64,000 nt of DNA. Origin: Patescibacteria group bacterium (lineage in GTDB: Bacteria; Patescibacteriota; JAHJAL01). Position numbers and translations under genes: made by a program. The DNA lies in assembly GCA_049322675.1 (NCBI GenBank), contig JBMORM010000009.1:16934-80933 (forward strand), in the 5' to 3' direction. The notes beneath the pieces are model-generated. The model did not search any database. It worked only from the letters and a program-made list of their open reading frames with translations, and was not told where the DNA came from. Every line of letters begins with the position of its first letter. The first letter of the stretch is position 1. Positions 16,707 through 62,960 of the stretch are shown piece by piece.

Positions 16707-17612
16707 TTATTTTGTATTAATTTTGGCAATCATTACAGTCAAGGGAAAGATCACGATAGCATTGATTATTCTTGAGATTCGATTTGGCTGCGTGACGAGA
16801 CGATAAAACCATTCAAGTCTATTTCTTCGCAGCCACAGGGGGGCTCGTGTGGCAGGCGGTCCGCCGTAAAAACTAACAGACCTAGCAATAAAGTCAAAGG
16901 CTCCACCAATCCCAGCAACTATTTTGACTGAGGGTATTTTTCTTAGATTGCGATCAATCCAGTATTCCTGCTTTGGAGCTCCGTAGGCCACCAATAAACA
17001 ATCTGGTTTTGTTTTATTTATCTGCTCGATAATTTGACATTCATGTTTGAAATCTGGATCCAGATTGGAGTAGCCGGCTATTGATAGATTGGGGTATTGA
17101 GCGACCAATTTTTGGCTGGTTATTTTGGCTACATTTGAAATTCCACCGAGTAAAAATATTTTTTTGCCTTGTTCGGCACATATTCGGCAGATTTCCGGGA
17201 CTAGATCGGTACCGGTAATATTTTCGGGAATTATTTGAGTGGCGTATTTTTTACTGAAAAAAAACAAAATGAGTGAAATAATCAATTGAATGAATGCCTG
17301 GATTTGTTTTAAAACCGGTAATTGGGTGAGAGGGATCTGATTGTAATTGGCCGCCCATTGGAGACCGGTACCATCAGCAACGTTGATTGCGGCTCGGTTT
17401 AAGATGGAGAGAAGATCGCGGTGACGATGCGCAAATAGCACAATTTCTGGATTGGGAGTGACAATATGTATTTGTTTATCACCTTCAAGATACTTTGAAA
17501 TTTTGTCCAGCACTTCGTCTAAGGTTTGAATATCGAGTGAACAGCCTAGGATGTTAACTTTTTTATTCATGGGGTTAATCGCTTTTGGGGTGGAGAAATT
17601 TGCTTTTATCAA
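16707..17612 (-). CDS. WecB/TagA/CpsF-family glycosyltransferase
   Basis: VNILGC..D...IVTPNPEIV...VADGTGL motifs. Confidence 0.75.
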   Translation of the reverse strand: MIKANFSTPKAINPMNKKVNILGCSLDIQTLDEVLDKISKYLEGDKQIHIVTPNPEIVLFAHRHRDLLSILNRAAINVADGTGLQWAANYNQIPLTQLPVLKQIQAFIQLIISLILFFFSKKYATQIIPENITGTDLVPEICRICAEQGKKIFLLGGISNVAKITSQKLVAQYPNLSIAGYSNLDPDFKHECQIIEQINKTKPDCLLVAYGAPKQEYWIDRNLRKIPSVKIVAGIGGAFDFIARSVSFYGGPPATRAPLWLRRNRLEWFYRLVTQPNRISRIINAIVIFPLTVMIAKINTK

Positions 17613-53057: not shown

Positions 53058-53131
53058 GGGCGATTAGCTCAGATGGTTAGAGCGCGTCACTGATAATGAC
53101 GAGGTCGGAGGTTCGATTCCCCCATCGCCCA
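53058..53131 (+). tRNA. tRNA-Ile (anticodon GAU), CCA not encoded
   Basis: Cloverleaf folded by hand; anticodon loop CTGATAA; one A-C mismatch in the T stem. Confidence 0.85.
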
Positions 53132-53135
53132 CTTT

Positions 53136-53166: not shown

Positions 53167-54441
53167 TTAAATAGTAAATTTTGTTTCAGCAAAAAATTTG
53201 GTATGACTTTGACCAAAGTATCCATTTAATTCTGCTCGATATTGCCCTCGATCCAAAGAATATTTATATTGCCAGTTGGTTGTTATTTTTCTGGTGCTCC
53301 CAGGTAAAACGTTTTCAATATCGAGATCTATTTCAGCGATTATATTATTTTTTGCATCATAAACTGTGATGGCTCCAAATGGTTTAAAATGAACATTCCC
53401 AGTATTGGAAAATTCTAATATTAATTCAATGTTGTTAGTATTTTTATTTATAGAAGAATAAAATTTTTCCACTGATCCACTTTCGGAAAGTTCACTACCG
53501 TTGACTCTGAGTAATACCAATGATCCGATCCCACTTTGTACAGCTAATTTGTTTGGATCAGAATTTTGATCTGAATTTTTAGTCATAAAAGTTAATGCAG
53601 CATAACGTCCACCGGCCTTGGCGTCTGGGGGTATACTTAAGTGAAATTTTATTTCTTTTTGACTTGCTGGTTCTAATACTATTTGAGGTGGATCAAAACT
53701 AATCCAATCTTTCATGGCATAATCTGTGTTTTTGTCTGTCATTTCCGGAACTCCATCTGAGTTTCCTTCTTTAGGTAAAAAGTTTTGAATTGATATTTCC
53801 AGCAACATAGGTTTGCTGCTAGGATTCTTTATTGTTTCAACAATAGACAATTGTTCACCTGGATTTCCCGTCAGCTCGTCAAATAATACGGGGTTGATTT
53901 TTGGCGCTTGATTAGCATAATTGGTTGGTTCATCGATTGTTTCAATGTTATTTTCTGAGCTTGAAATACTATCCCCTTCTATCCCTCGGTCAATTGTTTC
54001 AGGTTTAAGAAGTAAATATTTTATTTTTAATATATATCCTTGGCTTTCCTTTTTAGTACTATAAACAACGCCACATCTTTCAGTGTCTTGGTTAATTTTG
54101 CCACATTCTTCTGGAAGTGATGGTTCTTTATCTATTACTTTTCTATTTCCGCTCCAAAGATATTCTATGTGATTGTCAGGCGGGTAAAAACCATTGATTG
54201 TGTAATATGCTTCCAGAGCTATAGTTATTTGTTCAGTTGTTGCTTTTATTTCATGATCTTTAGCTTTGGTTTGTACTTGGGAGATATCGCTTTGTATTTT
54301 TTTACTATCCAAAGTGGGAGAAATTTTTATTAAAACAAAAATAATAATTCCTCCAATTGTCAGCAAGGACAACATTATGGCGATGATCAGAAAGTAAATA
54401 ATTTTATTTTCTGATTTGTTTTGAAAAAAATTCGTTTCCAT
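53167..54441 (-). CDS. Secreted or membrane-anchored hypothetical protein with Ig-like beta-rich regions
   Basis: N-terminal TM IIYFLIIAIMLSLLTIGGIIIFVLI. Confidence 0.5.
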   Translation of the reverse strand: METNFFQNKSENKIIYFLIIAIMLSLLTIGGIIIFVLIKISPTLDSKKIQSDISQVQTKAKDHEIKATTEQITIALEAYYTINGFYPPDNHIEYLWSGNRKVIDKEPSLPEECGKINQDTERCGVVYSTKKESQGYILKIKYLLLKPETIDRGIEGDSISSSENNIETIDEPTNYANQAPKINPVLFDELTGNPGEQLSIVETIKNPSSKPMLLEISIQNFLPKEGNSDGVPEMTDKNTDYAMKDWISFDPPQIVLEPASQKEIKFHLSIPPDAKAGGRYAALTFMTKNSDQNSDPNKLAVQSGIGSLVLLRVNGSELSESGSVEKFYSSINKNTNNIELILEFSNTGNVHFKPFGAITVYDAKNNIIAEIDLDIENVLPGSTRKITTNWQYKYSLDRGQYRAELNGYFGQSHTKFFAETKFTI

Positions 54442-54450
54442 TTTTGCATA

Positions 54451-54483
54451 AAAAAATAATCCACTTTGATTGTGGATTTTTTA
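54451..54483. terminator. Hairpin (aatccac/gtggatt) flanked by A6 and T6 runs, between the 16S 3' flank and the next gene
   Basis: Read directly. Confidence 0.35.
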
Positions 54484-54700
54484 TTATACTTTTGCAAGAG
54501 TTAACCACATTTTAATGACAAGAAGATTAGACCTGACAAGTGAATCACAAAATGTAAACATTTTGCATCGACCTCTAAGGTAGTTATCACTTTTTGGAGA
54601 TCATATCGTTAAAGGCTAGAAACCAGAAAACGAAAAGGTAAACCAGTTACTAGTCCTTAACAAAATGATCTCCAAACAAGGAAACTAAATAATCCCTAGA

Positions 54701-56190
<1,490 letters not shown>

Positions 56191-56314
56191 TAATAAAAAG
56201 AAAAAAAATGCGAAATGAATTGAAATTGAACAAGGTCTTTATCTTCTTGCCAATAAAATGTTGTTAAAGTTACAAAATAAATACATGATTCACATGTATT
56301 ATCTTACATGTAAT

Positions 56315-57132: not shown

Positions 57133-57161
57133 TTGACTATATTCATTTTTTTATTTATAAT
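57133..57161 (+). promoter_or_regulatory. Near-consensus sigma70 promoter TTGACT-N17-TATAAT, ~60 nt upstream of the 57220 ATG
   Basis: Hexamers and spacer counted directly. Confidence 0.45.
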
Positions 57162-57219: not shown

Positions 57220-57579
57220 ATGGTTGTTCTTTCGGGGTCTGATCAGATAGAAAATAATGACTTTAATCGTCAAGTTCCTACATTGGAGGGGCAGGATTTT
57301 TTGAGTCTAAATGAAAGCAAGCAACAATCCAAACCTGCTGATTTAAAGCCAAGATTTGGAGAAGGGTTAAAAGTTAATCAAAAAAAATCAGAATTGCCCG
57401 AGCGAACTATTGAAGGGTCACAAACAACTGAAAAGTCACAAACAACTCAACAGAAGAATAGTTTAACTCTAGGAAATAAGCCAATTGTTATGTTAGAGAA
57501 ACTTTACAATGATACAGCTTTTGATCCCTGCAAAGAAACTACAGAGTTAATTGAAATATTAAGAAGTTTAGATAAATAA
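57220..57579 (+). CDS. Small hydrophilic hypothetical protein (119 aa), first gene of the ATPase operon
   Basis: ORF only. Confidence 0.4.
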   Translation: MVVLSGSDQIENNDFNRQVPTLEGQDFLSLNESKQQSKPADLKPRFGEGLKVNQKKSELPERTIEGSQTTEKSQTTQQKNSLTLGNKPIVMLEKLYNDTAFDPCKETTELIEILRSLDK

Positions 57580-57606
57580 AAACAAAAGATAGATAATTTT
57601 CGTTTA

Positions 57607-60066
57607 ATGGATTTTTTCTATTATATTGGCTTTGCTTTACTAGGCTCAGTTTTTTTATTTTTGATACTGTGGCTTGTTTTTTTGTATGTAAAAAAACACT
57701 TACGCAACCAGGAGAGTTTCAAAAAGACTCTCAATATGACTTTTTTACAGGTTAGGGTTCAAAAAGAAGCTCCTGAAGATGAAAGAAATTTAAAGCCAAA
57801 GGAAGTGATTGCCGTGGCCGAACACTTATACAATAGTTTTTATAGTATATATGCAGGTGGATGGAAAAATAAAATATTAGGAGAGCAGCATATAAGTATC
57901 GAAATTGCCACCAAAAAGGGCATGACGGATTTTTACGTTGTTATTCCCAGAAATTTGGTTGAGTTGGTGCGTAAACAAATGAATGCACAATTGCCAGATG
58001 CCATAATTGATGAAGTAGAAGGATATAATATATTCAATCCAGACTCAAAGTATGATGCTACTAGTTTGACTTTTAATAAAAATTTTATGTATCCGATTAA
58101 AACATATGATCAGATGGAATCGGATCCATTGAACAACATTACAAATGCTTTAAGCAAATTAGCAGAAGATGAAGGTGCAGCAATACAGTTTTTGATAAGA
58201 CCAATAGACAACAAGTGGCACAGGAGAGGGAAATATGCTGCTCATAATATGCAGCAAGGTAAACCAATTTTTGAGCAGAGTTGGCCGCTTAAGGTTTTAA
58301 ATTTTATTGGTCAAGCAATTACTTTTTTAATTAGTAATATTGCTAATCAGGCTACGGGTAACGAAAAGAATGTCAAAGCTGAAGATAAACCAATACAATT
58401 GACGCAGGTTCAAACAGAATTAATCAAGGCTTTGGAAGAAAAATCATCAAAAGTTGGCTTTGAAACAATGATTAGAATTATTTCTTCCTCAAGCAATGAA
58501 TTGTCTGCGAAAAGCAATATGGATAATATTTTCAGTGCCTTCAGCCAATTTTTGTCGCCTGACATGAACGGTTTTAAAAAGATTAATGACAAAAAAGAAA
58601 AAATTGTTAAGGACTATATTTTTCGAAGATTTGTCGATGATAGTAAAATGATTTTGAATACAAAGGAGTTGGCAACTGTTATTCATTTTCCTAATCAACA
58701 CGTTGATACACCAAACCTAAACTGGCTTTTGGCTAAAAGAGCACCAATGCCTCCTGACGCTCCCACACAGGGTTTGCAGCTTGGAGTAAATGTGTATCGC
58801 GGAGTGAGAAAAAATGTTTACATTGAAGATGGCGACGAAGGACGCGGAAGACATATATATAGTTTGGGCCGTACCGGTAGTGGTAAAACTCAATTTCTTT
58901 TCAGTATGATGAAGCAAGACATGGACAGTGGAAAAGGTTTTTGCGTTTTGGACCCGCATGGTGATTTGGCTGAAAAGGTTTTATATCATGTTCCAAGGGA
59001 GAGAGCGGATGACGTAATATATTTTGATCCTGGTGGCGACTTGGAGATGCCTATGGGTCTAAATCTATTTGAAGCTAGAAGTGACGAAGAAAAGGAATTG
59101 AGAGCAATGTCTGCTTTGAATATAATGATAAAAATGTTTGGCGAAGAAATATTTAGTCCGCGTTTGCAGGACTATTTTCGCAATGGTTGTCTTACATTGA
59201 TGGCCGATGATGAAAATCCAGGGACAATTGTCGATATAGTAAACCTGTTTACGGATGAAGAATATCAACTGGAAAAGGTGGCTAAAGTAAAAAATCCGAC
59301 GGTAAAATCTTGGTGGATAAAAGTATTTGGTTCTATGGGCTCAAGAGAGAAAGAAGAAATGATCCCTTATTTTGCGGCAAAGTTCGGTCAGTTTATAACT
59401 AACGTTACTGTTCGAAACACTTTGGGGCAATCGAGATCATCTTTTAATATTCGACAAGTTATGGATGAAGGAAAAATATTGATTGCAAATCTATCAAAGG
59501 GAAAATTGGGAGAGATAAATTCAAACTTGATTGGTATGATCTTGGCTGAAGAAATCACCATGGCTGCGTTGGCTAGAACTGATCAACCAGAAGAAAACCG
59601 TCGGCCGTTTTATTTATATGTTGATGAGTTTCAAAATTTTGCGACAAAAACTTTTGCGACGATATTGTCGGAAGCCAGGAAATACAAACTAAATTTAATT
59701 ATTGCTCACCAATTTATAGACCAACTCAGTGTTAACGGCAAAGAAGAAATAAGGGATGCAGTATTTGGTAACTGCGGAACGTATATAATATTCAGAACTT
59801 CAGCTAAAGATGCGGAATTTTTAGAAAAAGAATTTATGCCGGTTTTCAATAAATCAGATATATCTAATATCGACCAGTATGTGGCATATGTAAAATTGAT
59901 GGTAAAAGGTACTGTTAGTAAGGGATTTTCTATGTCAACCGTCTATTTAAATAACCCTCATAAAGAACTTGGAGAGGCAATCAGACAATTGTCTCGTTTA
60001 AAATTTGGCAGAGAGAGAGCAGAGGTAGACGAGGATATTAGAAGGAGATTAAAATTATTAGGTTAA
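57607..60066 (+). CDS. N-terminally membrane-anchored FtsK/HerA-superfamily ATPase with type IV coupling protein (VirD4/TraG/TraD)-like motifs and an unusual ~390-aa pre-ATPase domain
   Basis: TM helix at residues 6-28; Walker A LGRTGSGKT; T4CP-like VLDPHGDL after the P-loop; ~230-aa insert; Walker B LYVDEFQNF; LIIAHQFIDQL and GNCGTYIIFR C-terminal motifs. Confidence 0.65.
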   Translation: MDFFYYIGFALLGSVFLFLILWLVFLYVKKHLRNQESFKKTLNMTFLQVRVQKEAPEDERNLKPKEVIAVAEHLYNSFYSIYAGGWKNKILGEQHISIEIATKKGMTDFYVVIPRNLVELVRKQMNAQLPDAIIDEVEGYNIFNPDSKYDATSLTFNKNFMYPIKTYDQMESDPLNNITNALSKLAEDEGAAIQFLIRPIDNKWHRRGKYAAHNMQQGKPIFEQSWPLKVLNFIGQAITFLISNIANQATGNEKNVKAEDKPIQLTQVQTELIKALEEKSSKVGFETMIRIISSSSNELSAKSNMDNIFSAFSQFLSPDMNGFKKINDKKEKIVKDYIFRRFVDDSKMILNTKELATVIHFPNQHVDTPNLNWLLAKRAPMPPDAPTQGLQLGVNVYRGVRKNVYIEDGDEGRGRHIYSLGRTGSGKTQFLFSMMKQDMDSGKGFCVLDPHGDLAEKVLYHVPRERADDVIYFDPGGDLEMPMGLNLFEARSDEEKELRAMSALNIMIKMFGEEIFSPRLQDYFRNGCLTLMADDENPGTIVDIVNLFTDEEYQLEKVAKVKNPTVKSWWIKVFGSMGSREKEEMIPYFAAKFGQFITNVTVRNTLGQSRSSFNIRQVMDEGKILIANLSKGKLGEINSNLIGMILAEEITMAALARTDQPEENRRPFYLYVDEFQNFATKTFATILSEARKYKLNLIIAHQFIDQLSVNGKEEIRDAVFGNCGTYIIFRTSAKDAEFLEKEFMPVFNKSDISNIDQYVAYVKLMVKGTVSKGFSMSTVYLNNPHKELGEAIRQLSRLKFGRERAEVDEDIRRRLKLLG

Positions 60067-60099
60067 TATTTTGATTTAAAAAAATAAAAATAAAAAAAA

Positions 60100-60330
60100 A
60101 TGAAGTCAATAAACGAAAGAAATGTAGACTCTTCTCTTTCGACACTTGAAGTATTAAAAAAACAATTTTCGGAAATGATGGGAACAATTGGAAAATTACG
60201 TGAAGAAAATATGGGTCTTAAATCTATGGTTGAAGAGTTGAAGAAGAGAAATTCTATGTTAGAAAAAAATATCGAAGAAATAAGTTTGATTGCCAATTTA
60301 AGAGTTAGTAAAAATAAAAATGAAAAATAG
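60100..60330 (+). CDS. Small coiled-coil protein (76 aa)
   Basis: Heptad-like KLREENMGLKSMVEELKKRNSMLEKNIEE. Confidence 0.4.
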   Translation: MKSINERNVDSSLSTLEVLKKQFSEMMGTIGKLREENMGLKSMVEELKKRNSMLEKNIEEISLIANLRVSKNKNEK

Positions 60331-61261
60331 CAATCTTGGTTCTTTAGAGAATAATAAACATCAATTTGCTTCGGAAGCAATAAGATATGATTTTTTAAAA
60401 AAGATTTTTTTAAAACAGGCAGATTTAACTTTGGAAAAAATCGATTTTAATAAGATTAAAGAAACTTATTCTGAATATTTAATAAAGAATAATTTAGATT
60501 TAAGGTTACTTAACAAGCTAATTCCAAAAGAATTAATTGGCTTTTCTAACGTAAATAGATCAGTGGCTGAATATTCTCCATTAACCAAAGAGATAAATTA
60601 TAATCTCTCATATCCTTTGATGGATTGGTTAGTAACAAATATTCATTGCAGTCATCTTGATAGAATTTTAAAACAGGATTTAATATCTTATACTTTTCAT
60701 GAGCAATCCCATGCACTTTCCGATAACGATGGTAAAATTGGATTTGAAAAAAGAATTGATGATAGTGGAGGTTTTAGAACATACAAAAAGAATTTTGAAT
60801 TGCTAAATGAAGGTATAACAAAAAAAGTAGAAAAAGAATTACTGGATTTATACAATAAAAAAAATCAGCTGGAGGTCAATAATAAGTCTAGTCTTTTTAG
60901 AAAAATTTATAATCTAATTCTTGATGGTTATTCAACATCAAGTTTTTTAACTGATACAATTATTTCTCGAATAAGCAAACAATGCGATCTCGATCAAGAA
61001 ATAGTATGGAGAGTGATTCTAAAGGGATATTTTAACAGTATTGATTTGACTAAAAATAAATATCAAAAAGTATTTACTAATCTCTTACCGGAAAATTTTT
61101 TCCATGAATTTAAAGAAATGCAACCTTGGCCTTCGATACACCAAAAAGCCCAATTATTTGTCATGATGGGAAAAATCGCTACAAGAGCGTTGCCTTTAAG
61201 AGATAAAAAACTAATTCGAAGATGGTTTAAAATGGTGGACAATTTTGAGGAAAAAAATTGA
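60320..61261 (+). CDS. Putative gluzincin-like metallopeptidase, paralog 1 (HEQSH ... NEGITK)
   Basis: HExxH followed ~40 aa later by the NEGIT motif; a shared C-terminal block with paralog 2. Confidence 0.5.
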   Translation: MKNSNLGSLENNKHQFASEAIRYDFLKKIFLKQADLTLEKIDFNKIKETYSEYLIKNNLDLRLLNKLIPKELIGFSNVNRSVAEYSPLTKEINYNLSYPLMDWLVTNIHCSHLDRILKQDLISYTFHEQSHALSDNDGKIGFEKRIDDSGGFRTYKKNFELLNEGITKKVEKELLDLYNKKNQLEVNNKSSLFRKIYNLILDGYSTSSFLTDTIISRISKQCDLDQEIVWRVILKGYFNSIDLTKNKYQKVFTNLLPENFFHEFKEMQPWPSIHQKAQLFVMMGKIATRALPLRDKKLIRRWFKMVDNFEEKN

Positions 61262-61341
61262 AATTAAAAAATAATCGGATCTAATTACAAAATTAATAAA
61301 AGCAATGTTAATAAGATTGGAAAAAATATAAAAACAAAAAA

Positions 61342-61497
61342 ATGAAAGAGAAAATAGGAGAAAATATTGGGGCTAGCCTTGATGAAATCTCTGATTTCCC
61401 TATCCCAAAAACAGCAAAGGATTTTTTTCAATTTGAATACTATCAAAAACTACTCAATCATGATTTGAAACAAATTCTGGATAGTAGTTTTTTCTAA
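61342..61497 (+). CDS. 51-aa ORF (MKEKIGENIGASLDEISDFPIPKTAKDFFQFEYYQKLLNHDLKQILDSSFF), possibly a detached N-terminal fragment of paralog 2
   Basis: Weak similarity to the paralog 1 N-terminal region (DFLKKIFLKQ); different frame from 61514. Confidence 0.2.
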   Translation: MKEKIGENIGASLDEISDFPIPKTAKDFFQFEYYQKLLNHDLKQILDSSFF

Positions 61498-61513
61498 GAT
61501 TAAATTTGATCAG

Positions 61514-62368
61514 TTGAAAGGCTTATTTGAGAAGTACCTATGCGAAGATGTCGGCATAGACAAAGACTATACAAAGAGAATCACAGGAAGATTCATCGAT
61601 AAGAAAAGATTTGAAAGTTCCAATTTGCAACATCTGCTGATGACTCCTCATCATGGAGCTTATTATAGTTTTCTTAATAAAAAAAATATACACCTCAATC
61701 CAATAGCGTTCTTCGAAAGAGGACTTATTGGGGATATAGCACGCGATCTTGGTAATGACAAATTAAAAAAACTGATAGATGATTCAATTTTACGAATTTT
61801 AATTCACGAAGAGACTCATGCTGTATCGCACGATATTTATCAAACTGAGGAACAACTCGGGAGGGAAAACACGCATTCTCTTGGATATAATATAATCACT
61901 ATTAATCGAAAGAAATTGGGAGTAGTTGAATTTTTATTTAGTAAATCGGAAAATATGTTGATAAATGAAGGGATTACGGATTTGATCGCTGACAAGATAG
62001 CCGACAAATACTATTTGAATAATAATATGGAAATTCCTCCAAGAGAAAATACAAATAAGCTTATTTATATGATAACTGGTCACGGTTATATTTCGACAAA
62101 AGAGATAATCAATGAATTAATTGATGAAATTTCAGACGAATGTCAGATTGATAAAAAAGTAATATGGGACAGATTGGTTAGGGATTATTTTGGTGGACTA
62201 GAAGGAAAAAAACAAATAATTGAAACTTTATTATCATGTTTTTCGCAGGATTTTTTGAAAAAATTTATAAAGATTAGCAATGAAAATAACTTGCGTAAAT
62301 TGATTAGAAATTATCTAATGAAGAATAAACCAATGGTTGAATGGAATGACGAGAAAAGAAAAAAATAG
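61514..62368 (+). CDS. Putative gluzincin-like metallopeptidase, paralog 2 (HEETHAVSH ... NEGITD); the ORF begins at TTG right after an in-frame TGA; the first ATG is at 61640
   Basis: HExxHxxxH plus NEGITD; aligns with 60320-61261 over the IY..GY.S..IS..C..D...W....YF block. Confidence 0.5.
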   Translation: MKGLFEKYLCEDVGIDKDYTKRITGRFIDKKRFESSNLQHLLMTPHHGAYYSFLNKKNIHLNPIAFFERGLIGDIARDLGNDKLKKLIDDSILRILIHEETHAVSHDIYQTEEQLGRENTHSLGYNIITINRKKLGVVEFLFSKSENMLINEGITDLIADKIADKYYLNNNMEIPPRENTNKLIYMITGHGYISTKEIINELIDEISDECQIDKKVIWDRLVRDYFGGLEGKKQIIETLLSCFSQDFLKKFIKISNENNLRKLIRNYLMKNKPMVEWNDEKRKK

Positions 62369-62416
62369 GCAATTTTTTTCATTTAGAATTGGAGAATATA
62401 GGGTGATGTTACTTAT

Positions 62417-62471: not shown

Positions 62472-62888
62472 ATGAAAAAAGAAATACATCCAAAATATGC
62501 TAAGTCGGTGATAACCTGTGCATGCGGTAATGTGATTGAAACAAGATCTATTAAACCTGAAATGAGAATCGAAATATGTTCAAATTGCCATCCGGTATTT
62601 ACCGGAAAGCAAAAGTACGTTGACACTGAAGGTCGTCTTGAACGTTTTCAGGCAATGTTTTCTGCTAGTTTAGAAAAGGGGAAAACAAAAAAAGATAAGA
62701 AAGTAAGAGTGCGAAGAAAAAAAGTTAGTATGGATATAAAAAATATTATTGCCGATCAAGAAAAAAGAAAAAACGAGAGACAAGCTCTAAAGAAGAAAAA
62801 AGAGATTAAAAAGAATGAAGAAGAGGCGAAAAGTGTTAAAGTTGTAAAGAAGGCCGCGAAGGCAAAAGAAAAAAAGAAGGATTTGTAA
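62472..62888 (+). CDS. rpmE: 50S ribosomal protein L31 with a Lys-rich C-terminal extension
   Basis: MKKEIHPKY...C.C...C..CHP zinc ribbon. Confidence 0.85.
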
Positions 62889-62897
62889 CTACAGAAA

Positions 62898-62960
62898 ACA
62901 AGAGTTGCTCAAAGGTAACTCTTGTTTATTAATTAAGACGAGAGCATTCTTGTCTTTTTT
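62898..62960 (+). terminator. Two tandem hairpins after rpmE; the second (aagacgag/cttgtctt) is followed by T6
   Basis: Read directly. Confidence 0.5.

Follow-up and report, generated by a model that had tools for sequence, protein, structure and literature searches.

Two tandem genes of a Patescibacteria group bacterium belong to an unannotated family of zincin-like proteins

In thermolysin (family M4) and neprilysin (M13), the HExxH motif is followed by a glutamate that acts as the third metal ligand and lies in an N-E-x-x-x-D/E context, the respective motifs being NEAISD and ENIAD. Iyer et al. described the zincin core as a sheet, a helix carrying HExxH and a helix carrying the glutamate (PMC5512222). 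A conserved HExxH motif is also borne by the C1 domain of the virion RNA polymerase (vRNAP) of phage N4 (PMC13434306), which was grouped with zincin-like metallopeptidases by HHpred (PMC5512222). Here, we compare these systems with two adjacent genes, A and B, of a Patescibacteria group bacterium metagenome-assembled genome (MAG), located in a stretch of 64,000 nucleotides (the window; positions 16,934 to 80,933 of contig JBMORM010000009.1, assembly GCA_049322675.1). NCBI lists their products as the hypothetical proteins ACOZAR_01105 and ACOZAR_01115. They belong to an unnamed and unannotated zincin-like family, found mostly in uncultured Patescibacteria, whose members are probably zincin-type (gluzincin-type) metallohydrolases and soluble, stand-alone proteins of ~320 amino acids (aa).

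Gene A (60320-61261, forward strand) is an intact open reading frame (ORF) of 313 aa, identified from the ORF and its translation, with a match to the hidden Markov model (HMM) of the family at E=1.6e-54. The body of gene B (61514-62368, forward strand) was called as a 284-aa ORF starting at TTG, in a frame that is open from 61469, and matches the same HMM at E=5e-52. In A, the motif FHEQSHALSD, with HEQSH at residues 127-131 (60698-60712), is followed by LNEGITKK, with NEGITK at residues 163-168 (60806-60823); E164 is the predicted third metal ligand. In B, the corresponding motifs are IHEETHAVSHD, with HEETH at 61805-61819, and INEGITDL, with NEGITD at 61964-61981. Thus, the two ORFs with HExxH and NEGIT motifs reported in a preliminary description of this DNA are indeed present, though its NE(G/A)I(T/S)D signature applies to B and not to A, where NEGITK lacks the acidic residue four positions after the glutamate (Glu+4). 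A BLASTP comparison of A with B gave E=4e-12 for an alignment of 104 aa with 24% identity, spanning the NEG motif through the IY..GY...W...YF block. The homology is therefore real and far beyond chance, and both the shared C-terminal block and the low identity of the pair are confirmed. A and B are the only two family members within the window, where they represent tandem, fast-diverging copies of the family.

The family is visible only by exhaustive HMMER searching, as word-index homolog searches returned just 3-5 relatives. With a profile of six sequences, the exhaustive search found 656 representatives at E<=1e-3, each standing for a cluster at 50% identity, and 357 at E<=1e-10. Nearly all of these relatives are 280-400 aa long (median 322 aa) and are matched end to end. 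Conservation was counted over the best 153 of the 656 relatives, using the residue numbers of A. Five residues, H127, E128, H131, E164 and Y178, are invariant in 153/153 and also in a set of 113 sequences; G141 (99%), Y204 (95%), A132 (92%) and W230 (90%) are further conserved. The family consensus can be written as [C/I/V]HEExHAxS ... G[Y/F] ... FNEG[V/I]T[E/D] ... E ... Y. Motif conservation in homologs, which had been named beforehand as a test of the zincin assignment, thus proved complete for HExxH and the downstream glutamate among these 153. The Glu+4 position is occupied by Asp or Glu in 145 of the 153 relatives (95%), B having Asp, and Lys is seen there only in A and its ortholog; at further conserved positions, A likewise deviates from the consensus. 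The second histidine and the glutamate are 33 residues apart in A; in B the spacing is 50, which is also the family median (range 24-93).

No signal peptide or transmembrane segment was found in A, in B or at the N terminus of the 153 relatives. Since a strongly hydrophobic 19-residue segment is present in just two of these relatives, and is N-terminal in neither, the family proteins appear to be soluble and devoid of a classical export signal. Neither A, B nor the 113 relatives matched M4, M13 or any other Pfam model at E<=0.1; across the Pfam, NCBIfam, PHROGs and PADLOC scans, stray weak matches to DUF4344 and helix-turn-helix domains were seen in 1-3 of the 113 members. A cluster look-up yielded source names reading 'hypothetical protein' only, and literature searches found no description of the family.

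The structure of A was predicted by AlphaFold2 (AF2) with an alignment of 113 sequences, giving a predicted local distance difference test score (pLDDT) of 88.2 and a predicted template modelling score of 0.87; this run replaced an earlier one made with six sequences, whose pLDDT was 71. According to the DSSP assignment, the N-terminal helices 6-40, 43-56 and 61-66 precede the strands 73-75, 83-86 and 91-94, a region that includes the conserved G/A83, Y85, N90 and I92. Helix 113-133 bears the HExxH motif and is followed by a hairpin (143-157), then by helix 160-181, which bears E164 and Y178, and finally by a C-terminal helical bundle. This succession of sheet, HExxH helix and Glu helix matches the zincin core layout (PMC5512222). 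Three features by which zincins and gluzincins (MEROPS clan MA(E)) are recognized, namely a HExxH helix, a downstream glutamate on the next helix and a three-stranded sheet upstream, are all found in the model. Sequence conservation and predicted topology thus support a gluzincin-like reading of the family. Outside of the zincin core, no significant match of the fold was found among solved or viral structures. The top Foldseek matches in the PDB, all non-significant, were zincins: selecase, jannalysin, abylysin, BlaR1, PZ peptidase and IrrE.

Comparison with the known families shows partial resemblance to several zincins. With thermolysin and neprilysin, the family has in common HExxH and the N-E-x-x-x-D/E context of the third ligand. 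On the other hand, the His-Glu spacing in M4 is ~20 residues, compared with the longer spacings of A and B, and the M13 proteins are much larger; the family also lacks a signal peptide and A carries Lys at Glu+4. Membership in M4 or M13 was rejected on the lack of a Pfam match and on this unlike spacing. The M1 aminopeptidases (PepN, LTA4H) show a likeness at the motif level, HExxH being followed by L-N/K-E-G-x-T, as in the SLKEGLTVF of E. coli PepN, but their spacing is 18 residues. Membership in M1 was rejected as well, since hhalign gave only 1.1% for the catalytic domain of E. coli PepN (residues 190-450), used as a control. The minigluzincins (selecase 4qhf, projannalysin 4jix and proabylysin 4jiu) and the M48/M56 cores (BlaR1) possess the same three-stranded sheet, active-site helix and Glu helix. 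However, the Foldseek matches to minigluzincins are non-significant (E 0.24-1.5, template modelling (TM) score <0.45), and these proteins have ~110 aa, whereas the family has ~65 more N-terminal and ~130 more C-terminal helical residues. The gluzincin assignment of the preliminary description therefore stands as far as the motif invariance, the ExxxD/E context and the AF2 topology are concerned, but it is matched by no significant similarity to solved zincins and does not extend to membership in M4, M13 or M1.

The sole PDB sequence-profile match at E<=0.02 was the zincin-like C1 domain of N4 vRNAP (HMM E=0.01). Against a C1 profile built from 13 sequences of diverse Schitoviridae, hhalign gave 60% (E=8.7e-5) with the full family profile and 82% (E=1.1e-5) with a core-only profile; with the single N4 sequence, the family profile reached 38%. 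When the core-only profile was compared with PDB sequences, the best E-value was ~0.9. The C1 domain (residues ~2124-2375; PDB 9pnq and related entries) resembles the family in having a β-hairpin, then a HExxHA helix and a later helix with an invariant N-E, which is part of LNEFMAW in N4-like phages and of FNEGVTE in the family. The two differ in setting: C1 sits inside virion proteins of 3,500 residues, while the family consists of stand-alone chromosomal proteins of ~300 aa with N- and C-terminal helical regions of their own. The profile match, which spans 37-44 columns, supports the presence of a zincin core in the family and establishes no specific evolutionary link. As a separate observation, HExxH is invariant in the vRNAP C1 of the 13 Schitoviridae (L019 22647-23657, N4 residues 2124-2460), and so is a glutamate ~80 residues further on, in LNEFMAWGL; this pattern agrees with the presence of an intact metal site of the gluzincin type in these virion polymerases.

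From the conserved residues and the predicted topology, we infer the following mechanism. H127 and H131 of the active-site helix, together with E164 of the next helix, would bind one Zn2+, and E128, acting as general base, would activate the water bound to the zinc. At Glu+4, the acidic residue (Asp in B, replaced by Lys in A) could orient a histidine ligand, like Asp170 in thermolysin. A substrate peptide would run along the edge of the sheet formed by the three strands (residues 73-94), and Y178, which is invariant, or Y204, which is nearly so, perhaps stabilizes the transition state. The C-terminal helical bundle (~190-312) and the N-terminal helices (6-66) would complete the cleft.

Gene B is interrupted in this genome by two frameshifts, which were located by DNA alignment. 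A closely related genome of identical gene order, covered by five independent metagenome contigs (L001-L004 and L006), carries an intact B ortholog, P0002, of 354 aa and 88% identity to B. Upstream of the body of B, a 51-aa ORF (61342-61497, forward strand) matches residues 1-50 of P0002 and constitutes the severed N-terminus of B. The first frameshift lies at 61488-61493, where a run of six T has one T more than the T5 of L001 and L002. The second, at 62351/62352, is a one-base deletion relative to the orthologs, beside an A-rich run; it creates a premature TAG at 62366-62368 and shifts the final 13 codons (to 62406) into another frame. The resulting C-terminal tail (62365-62406, forward strand), IGNFFHLELENIG, is out of frame with the body. 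When both indels are repaired, a 354-aa ORF (61342-62406) is obtained whose alignment with P0002 is gapless, at 85% identity. Thus, the 284-aa ORF exists as had been described, but it corresponds to an incomplete gene. The two indels of B, seen relative to four independent ortholog assemblies, are the only frameshifting ones in an alignment of 13.7 kb; they could be assembly errors, a recent pseudogenization or inactivation, or a population polymorphism.

The two genes are preceded on the same strand by a 119-aa low-complexity protein (57220-57579), an 819-aa TraD/VirD4-like coupling ATPase (57607-60066; Pfam PF10412, PF02534 and PF12696) and a 76-aa coiled-coil protein (60100-60330), and are followed by ribosomal protein L31 (rpmE, 62472-62888, forward strand). 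The order in the window is 16S rRNA and a 180-aa gene, both on the reverse strand, and then, all on the forward strand, the 119-aa gene, the ATPase, the coiled-coil gene, A, B, rpmE and prfA; it is the same in the ortholog locus L001. A good sigma-70-like promoter-like site is found at 57133-57161, the ATPase, A and B are followed by terminator-like sites only after rpmE (62919-62956), and the start of A overlaps the stop of the coiled-coil gene by 11 nucleotides. It is therefore plausible that the genes at 57220-60330 form an operon with A and B, in this lineage only. The other scanned genes of the window have housekeeping functions (ClpC, RelA/SpoT, NusA, ProRS, ribosomal proteins and a P-type ATPase).

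The surroundings of the family were further examined in 17 other contexts, comprising 10 GTDB species-genome loci and 7 metagenome contigs. The GTDB loci were taken with flanks of up to 10 kb where the contig allowed, two having only ~1.4 and 3.6 kb upstream, and several of the metagenome contigs are only 2-4 kb long. Seven of the GTDB loci are labelled as Patescibacteria (Liptonbacteria, Paceibacteria, Moraniibacteriota, Parcubacteria and Saccharibacteria) and three as Bdellovibrionales or Gammaproteobacteria MAGs. The neighbours in the 17 contexts include dnaE, thrS, topA, prfA, rpoB, Amidase_2, NUDIX, UbiA, clpS and folD. No partner gene conserved across lineages was found among them, the synteny being local, with prfA nearby in three lineages and Amidase_2 plus rpoB in three loci. 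In the latter (L013, L015 and L016, at ~3601, 9710 and 9947), the family gene stands between Amidase_2, encoding an N-acetylmuramoyl-L-alanine amidase, and rpoB; since this synteny is common with a Moraniibacteriota MAG, the two Bdellovibrionales labels perhaps result from mis-binning.

To describe selection on the locus, the ratio of non-synonymous to synonymous substitution rates (dN/dS) was computed against the ortholog locus, at a dS of ~0.3-0.6. The values are 0.16 for A and 0.12 for B, compared with 0.009 for the ATPase and 0.02 for L31, so that A and B are constrained, though less than the core genes; the coiled-coil gene has 0.25. No 40-codon window of A or B exceeds 0.33. Positive or diversifying selection on the two genes was thus rejected, and the ratio of B, as estimated from sequence, indicates long-term purifying selection. 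In a neighbour-joining tree, A and B appear as sister long branches with weak support (bootstrap 34). The preliminary proposal of an old duplication or rapid divergence is hence partly right: the two long branches are in line with it, but their pairing has a bootstrap of just 34. Another tandem pair (L014, 8771-9745 and 9914-10921), from a MAG with the label Gammaproteobacteria, is monophyletic with bootstrap 100, and tandem duplication therefore occurred independently at least twice. Two neighbours of A and B stand out in the same comparison. The 119-aa protein, with a dN/dS of 1.4, shows 28.5 non-synonymous versus 5.5 synonymous differences and in-frame indels relative to its ortholog; it either evolves very fast or is under no constraint as a protein. 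The ATPase, which has an N-terminal membrane segment and, in the ortholog, a DUF8128 match, is 99.4% identical in protein at a DNA difference of ~5%, and is far more constrained than anything else nearby.

Several observations weigh against the assignment of the family to zincin-type peptidases. Curated models of Pfam, NCBIfam, PHROGs and PADLOC gave no consistent match, the best Foldseek E-values of 0.24-0.5 (TM <0.45) provide no significant structural match, and the hhalign alignment with C1 covers the hairpin and HExxHA alone (37-44 columns). No conserved neighbour hints at a substrate and, as A lacks the acidic Glu+4 and B is frameshifted in this genome, the activity of both copies is uncertain. 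Furthermore, HExxH is also present in non-peptidase enzymes with other chemistries, for instance the alpha-ketoglutarate-dependent (alpha-KG) HExxH oxygenases (PMC12636437, PMC13434306). The family could then be a non-peptidase metalloenzyme or a dead scaffold that keeps the HExxH...E site, such as another hydrolase, an Fe/alpha-KG HExxH-type oxygenase or a regulatory pseudo-peptidase, with A possibly acting as a pseudo-enzyme partner of B. The absence of significant matches to peptidase families and structures fits this explanation, as do the Lys found only in A and its ortholog, the other departures of A from the consensus, and the proximity of the cell-wall amidase gene in three loci. We nevertheless consider it unlikely: all 153 relatives, A among them, retain every ligand as well as the catalytic Glu, which argues against a dead scaffold, the order of sheet, HExxH helix and ExxxD/E helix corresponds to zincin peptidases, and the NCBIfam scan, which presumably included the HEXXH-motif domain model, gave no match. 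It is still less probable that the family originated from the zincin-like processing peptidase (MPTase) domains of phage and conjugative-element 'polyvalent' proteins, or is a domesticated relative of these domains, and acts in genetic conflict or in the processing of injected proteins. Although C1, an example of such domains, is the best and only sub-0.05 PDB profile match, with 60-82% in hhalign versus 1% for the PepN control and with HExxHA and NE motifs common to both groups, this similarity extends over ~40 columns around HExxH only, and the family proteins are stand-alone and chromosomal, amid housekeeping genes. In addition, the representative P0003 had no tblastn match among 50,697 phage or 72,556 plasmid records, and no PHROG or PADLOC model matched.

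The preliminary description had also likened the pair to effector or toxin families and raised a link with the ATPase. A and B would then be secreted or injected zincin proteases recognized by the adjacent TraD/VirD4-like ATPase. Such an arrangement agrees with the position of A after the ATPase and the coiled-coil gene, on the same strand, with a start/stop overlap and an order conserved in L001. A and B show 83% and 88% identity, respectively, between the two strains, compared with the near-identity of the ATPase, and both tandem copies lie on long branches; besides, substrates of coupling proteins need no signal peptide. However, the co-occurrence with the ATPase failed when it was looked for, the ATPase being absent nearby in 17/17 other contexts, as far as flanks of at most 10 kb and, in several cases, contigs of only 2-4 kb could show. 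Purifying selection acts on both genes, no other component of a type IV or other secretion system was found among the window proteins scanned against Pfam, and tblastn of P0003 revealed no homologs in the phage and plasmid collections. The effector or toxin idea, and a link with the ATPase beyond this lineage, are thus not supported, and we regard secretion or injection of A and B as very improbable. A broader scenario, to which we attach the least weight, would make the family a Patescibacteria-wide zincin related to polyvalent-protein processing peptidases, which in some lineages, this one included, would be an ATPase-coupled, exported, fast-evolving and duplicated effector acting on the host cell of the episymbiont; homopolymer indels might in that case switch copies on and off. 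Given the lack of an export signal and the housekeeping neighbours, the most likely role of the family would be that of an intracellular zinc peptidase, engaged in peptide or protein processing or turnover, and not that of a secreted toxin.

Some further features were noticed around the locus. Upstream, a segment at 53887-54486 is hypervariable, with 62-66% DNA identity to the ortholog versus a background of ~90%. It lies within a gene at 53167-54441 (reverse strand), whose 424-aa product has a weak match to a WxL-interacting peptidoglycan-binding domain and may be a variable surface protein. The 16S rRNA gene, which is complete, occupies 54700-56197 (reverse strand), with tRNA-Ile at 53058-53132 on the opposite, forward strand; an Rfam scan of 53-64 kb gave no 23S or 5S match, and the rRNA genes may be unlinked. 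Downstream of B, the L31 protein has 138 aa, its normal 65-residue domain being followed by a Lys/Glu-rich C-terminal extension of ~70 residues.

In the tiny genomes of Patescibacteria, a large part of the conserved genes lacks an assigned function. The family to which A and B belong is sizeable, with its 656 clusters, and absent from Pfam, NCBIfam and PHROGs. For this family, a concrete prediction can now be made, that of a zinc peptidase whose ligand and catalytic residues are specified. The family is new, though of a kind that is very well known, and its context points to no surprising role. Collectively, these data overturn nothing known; they add one more branch to the zincin superfamily and offer a defined target for experimentalists.

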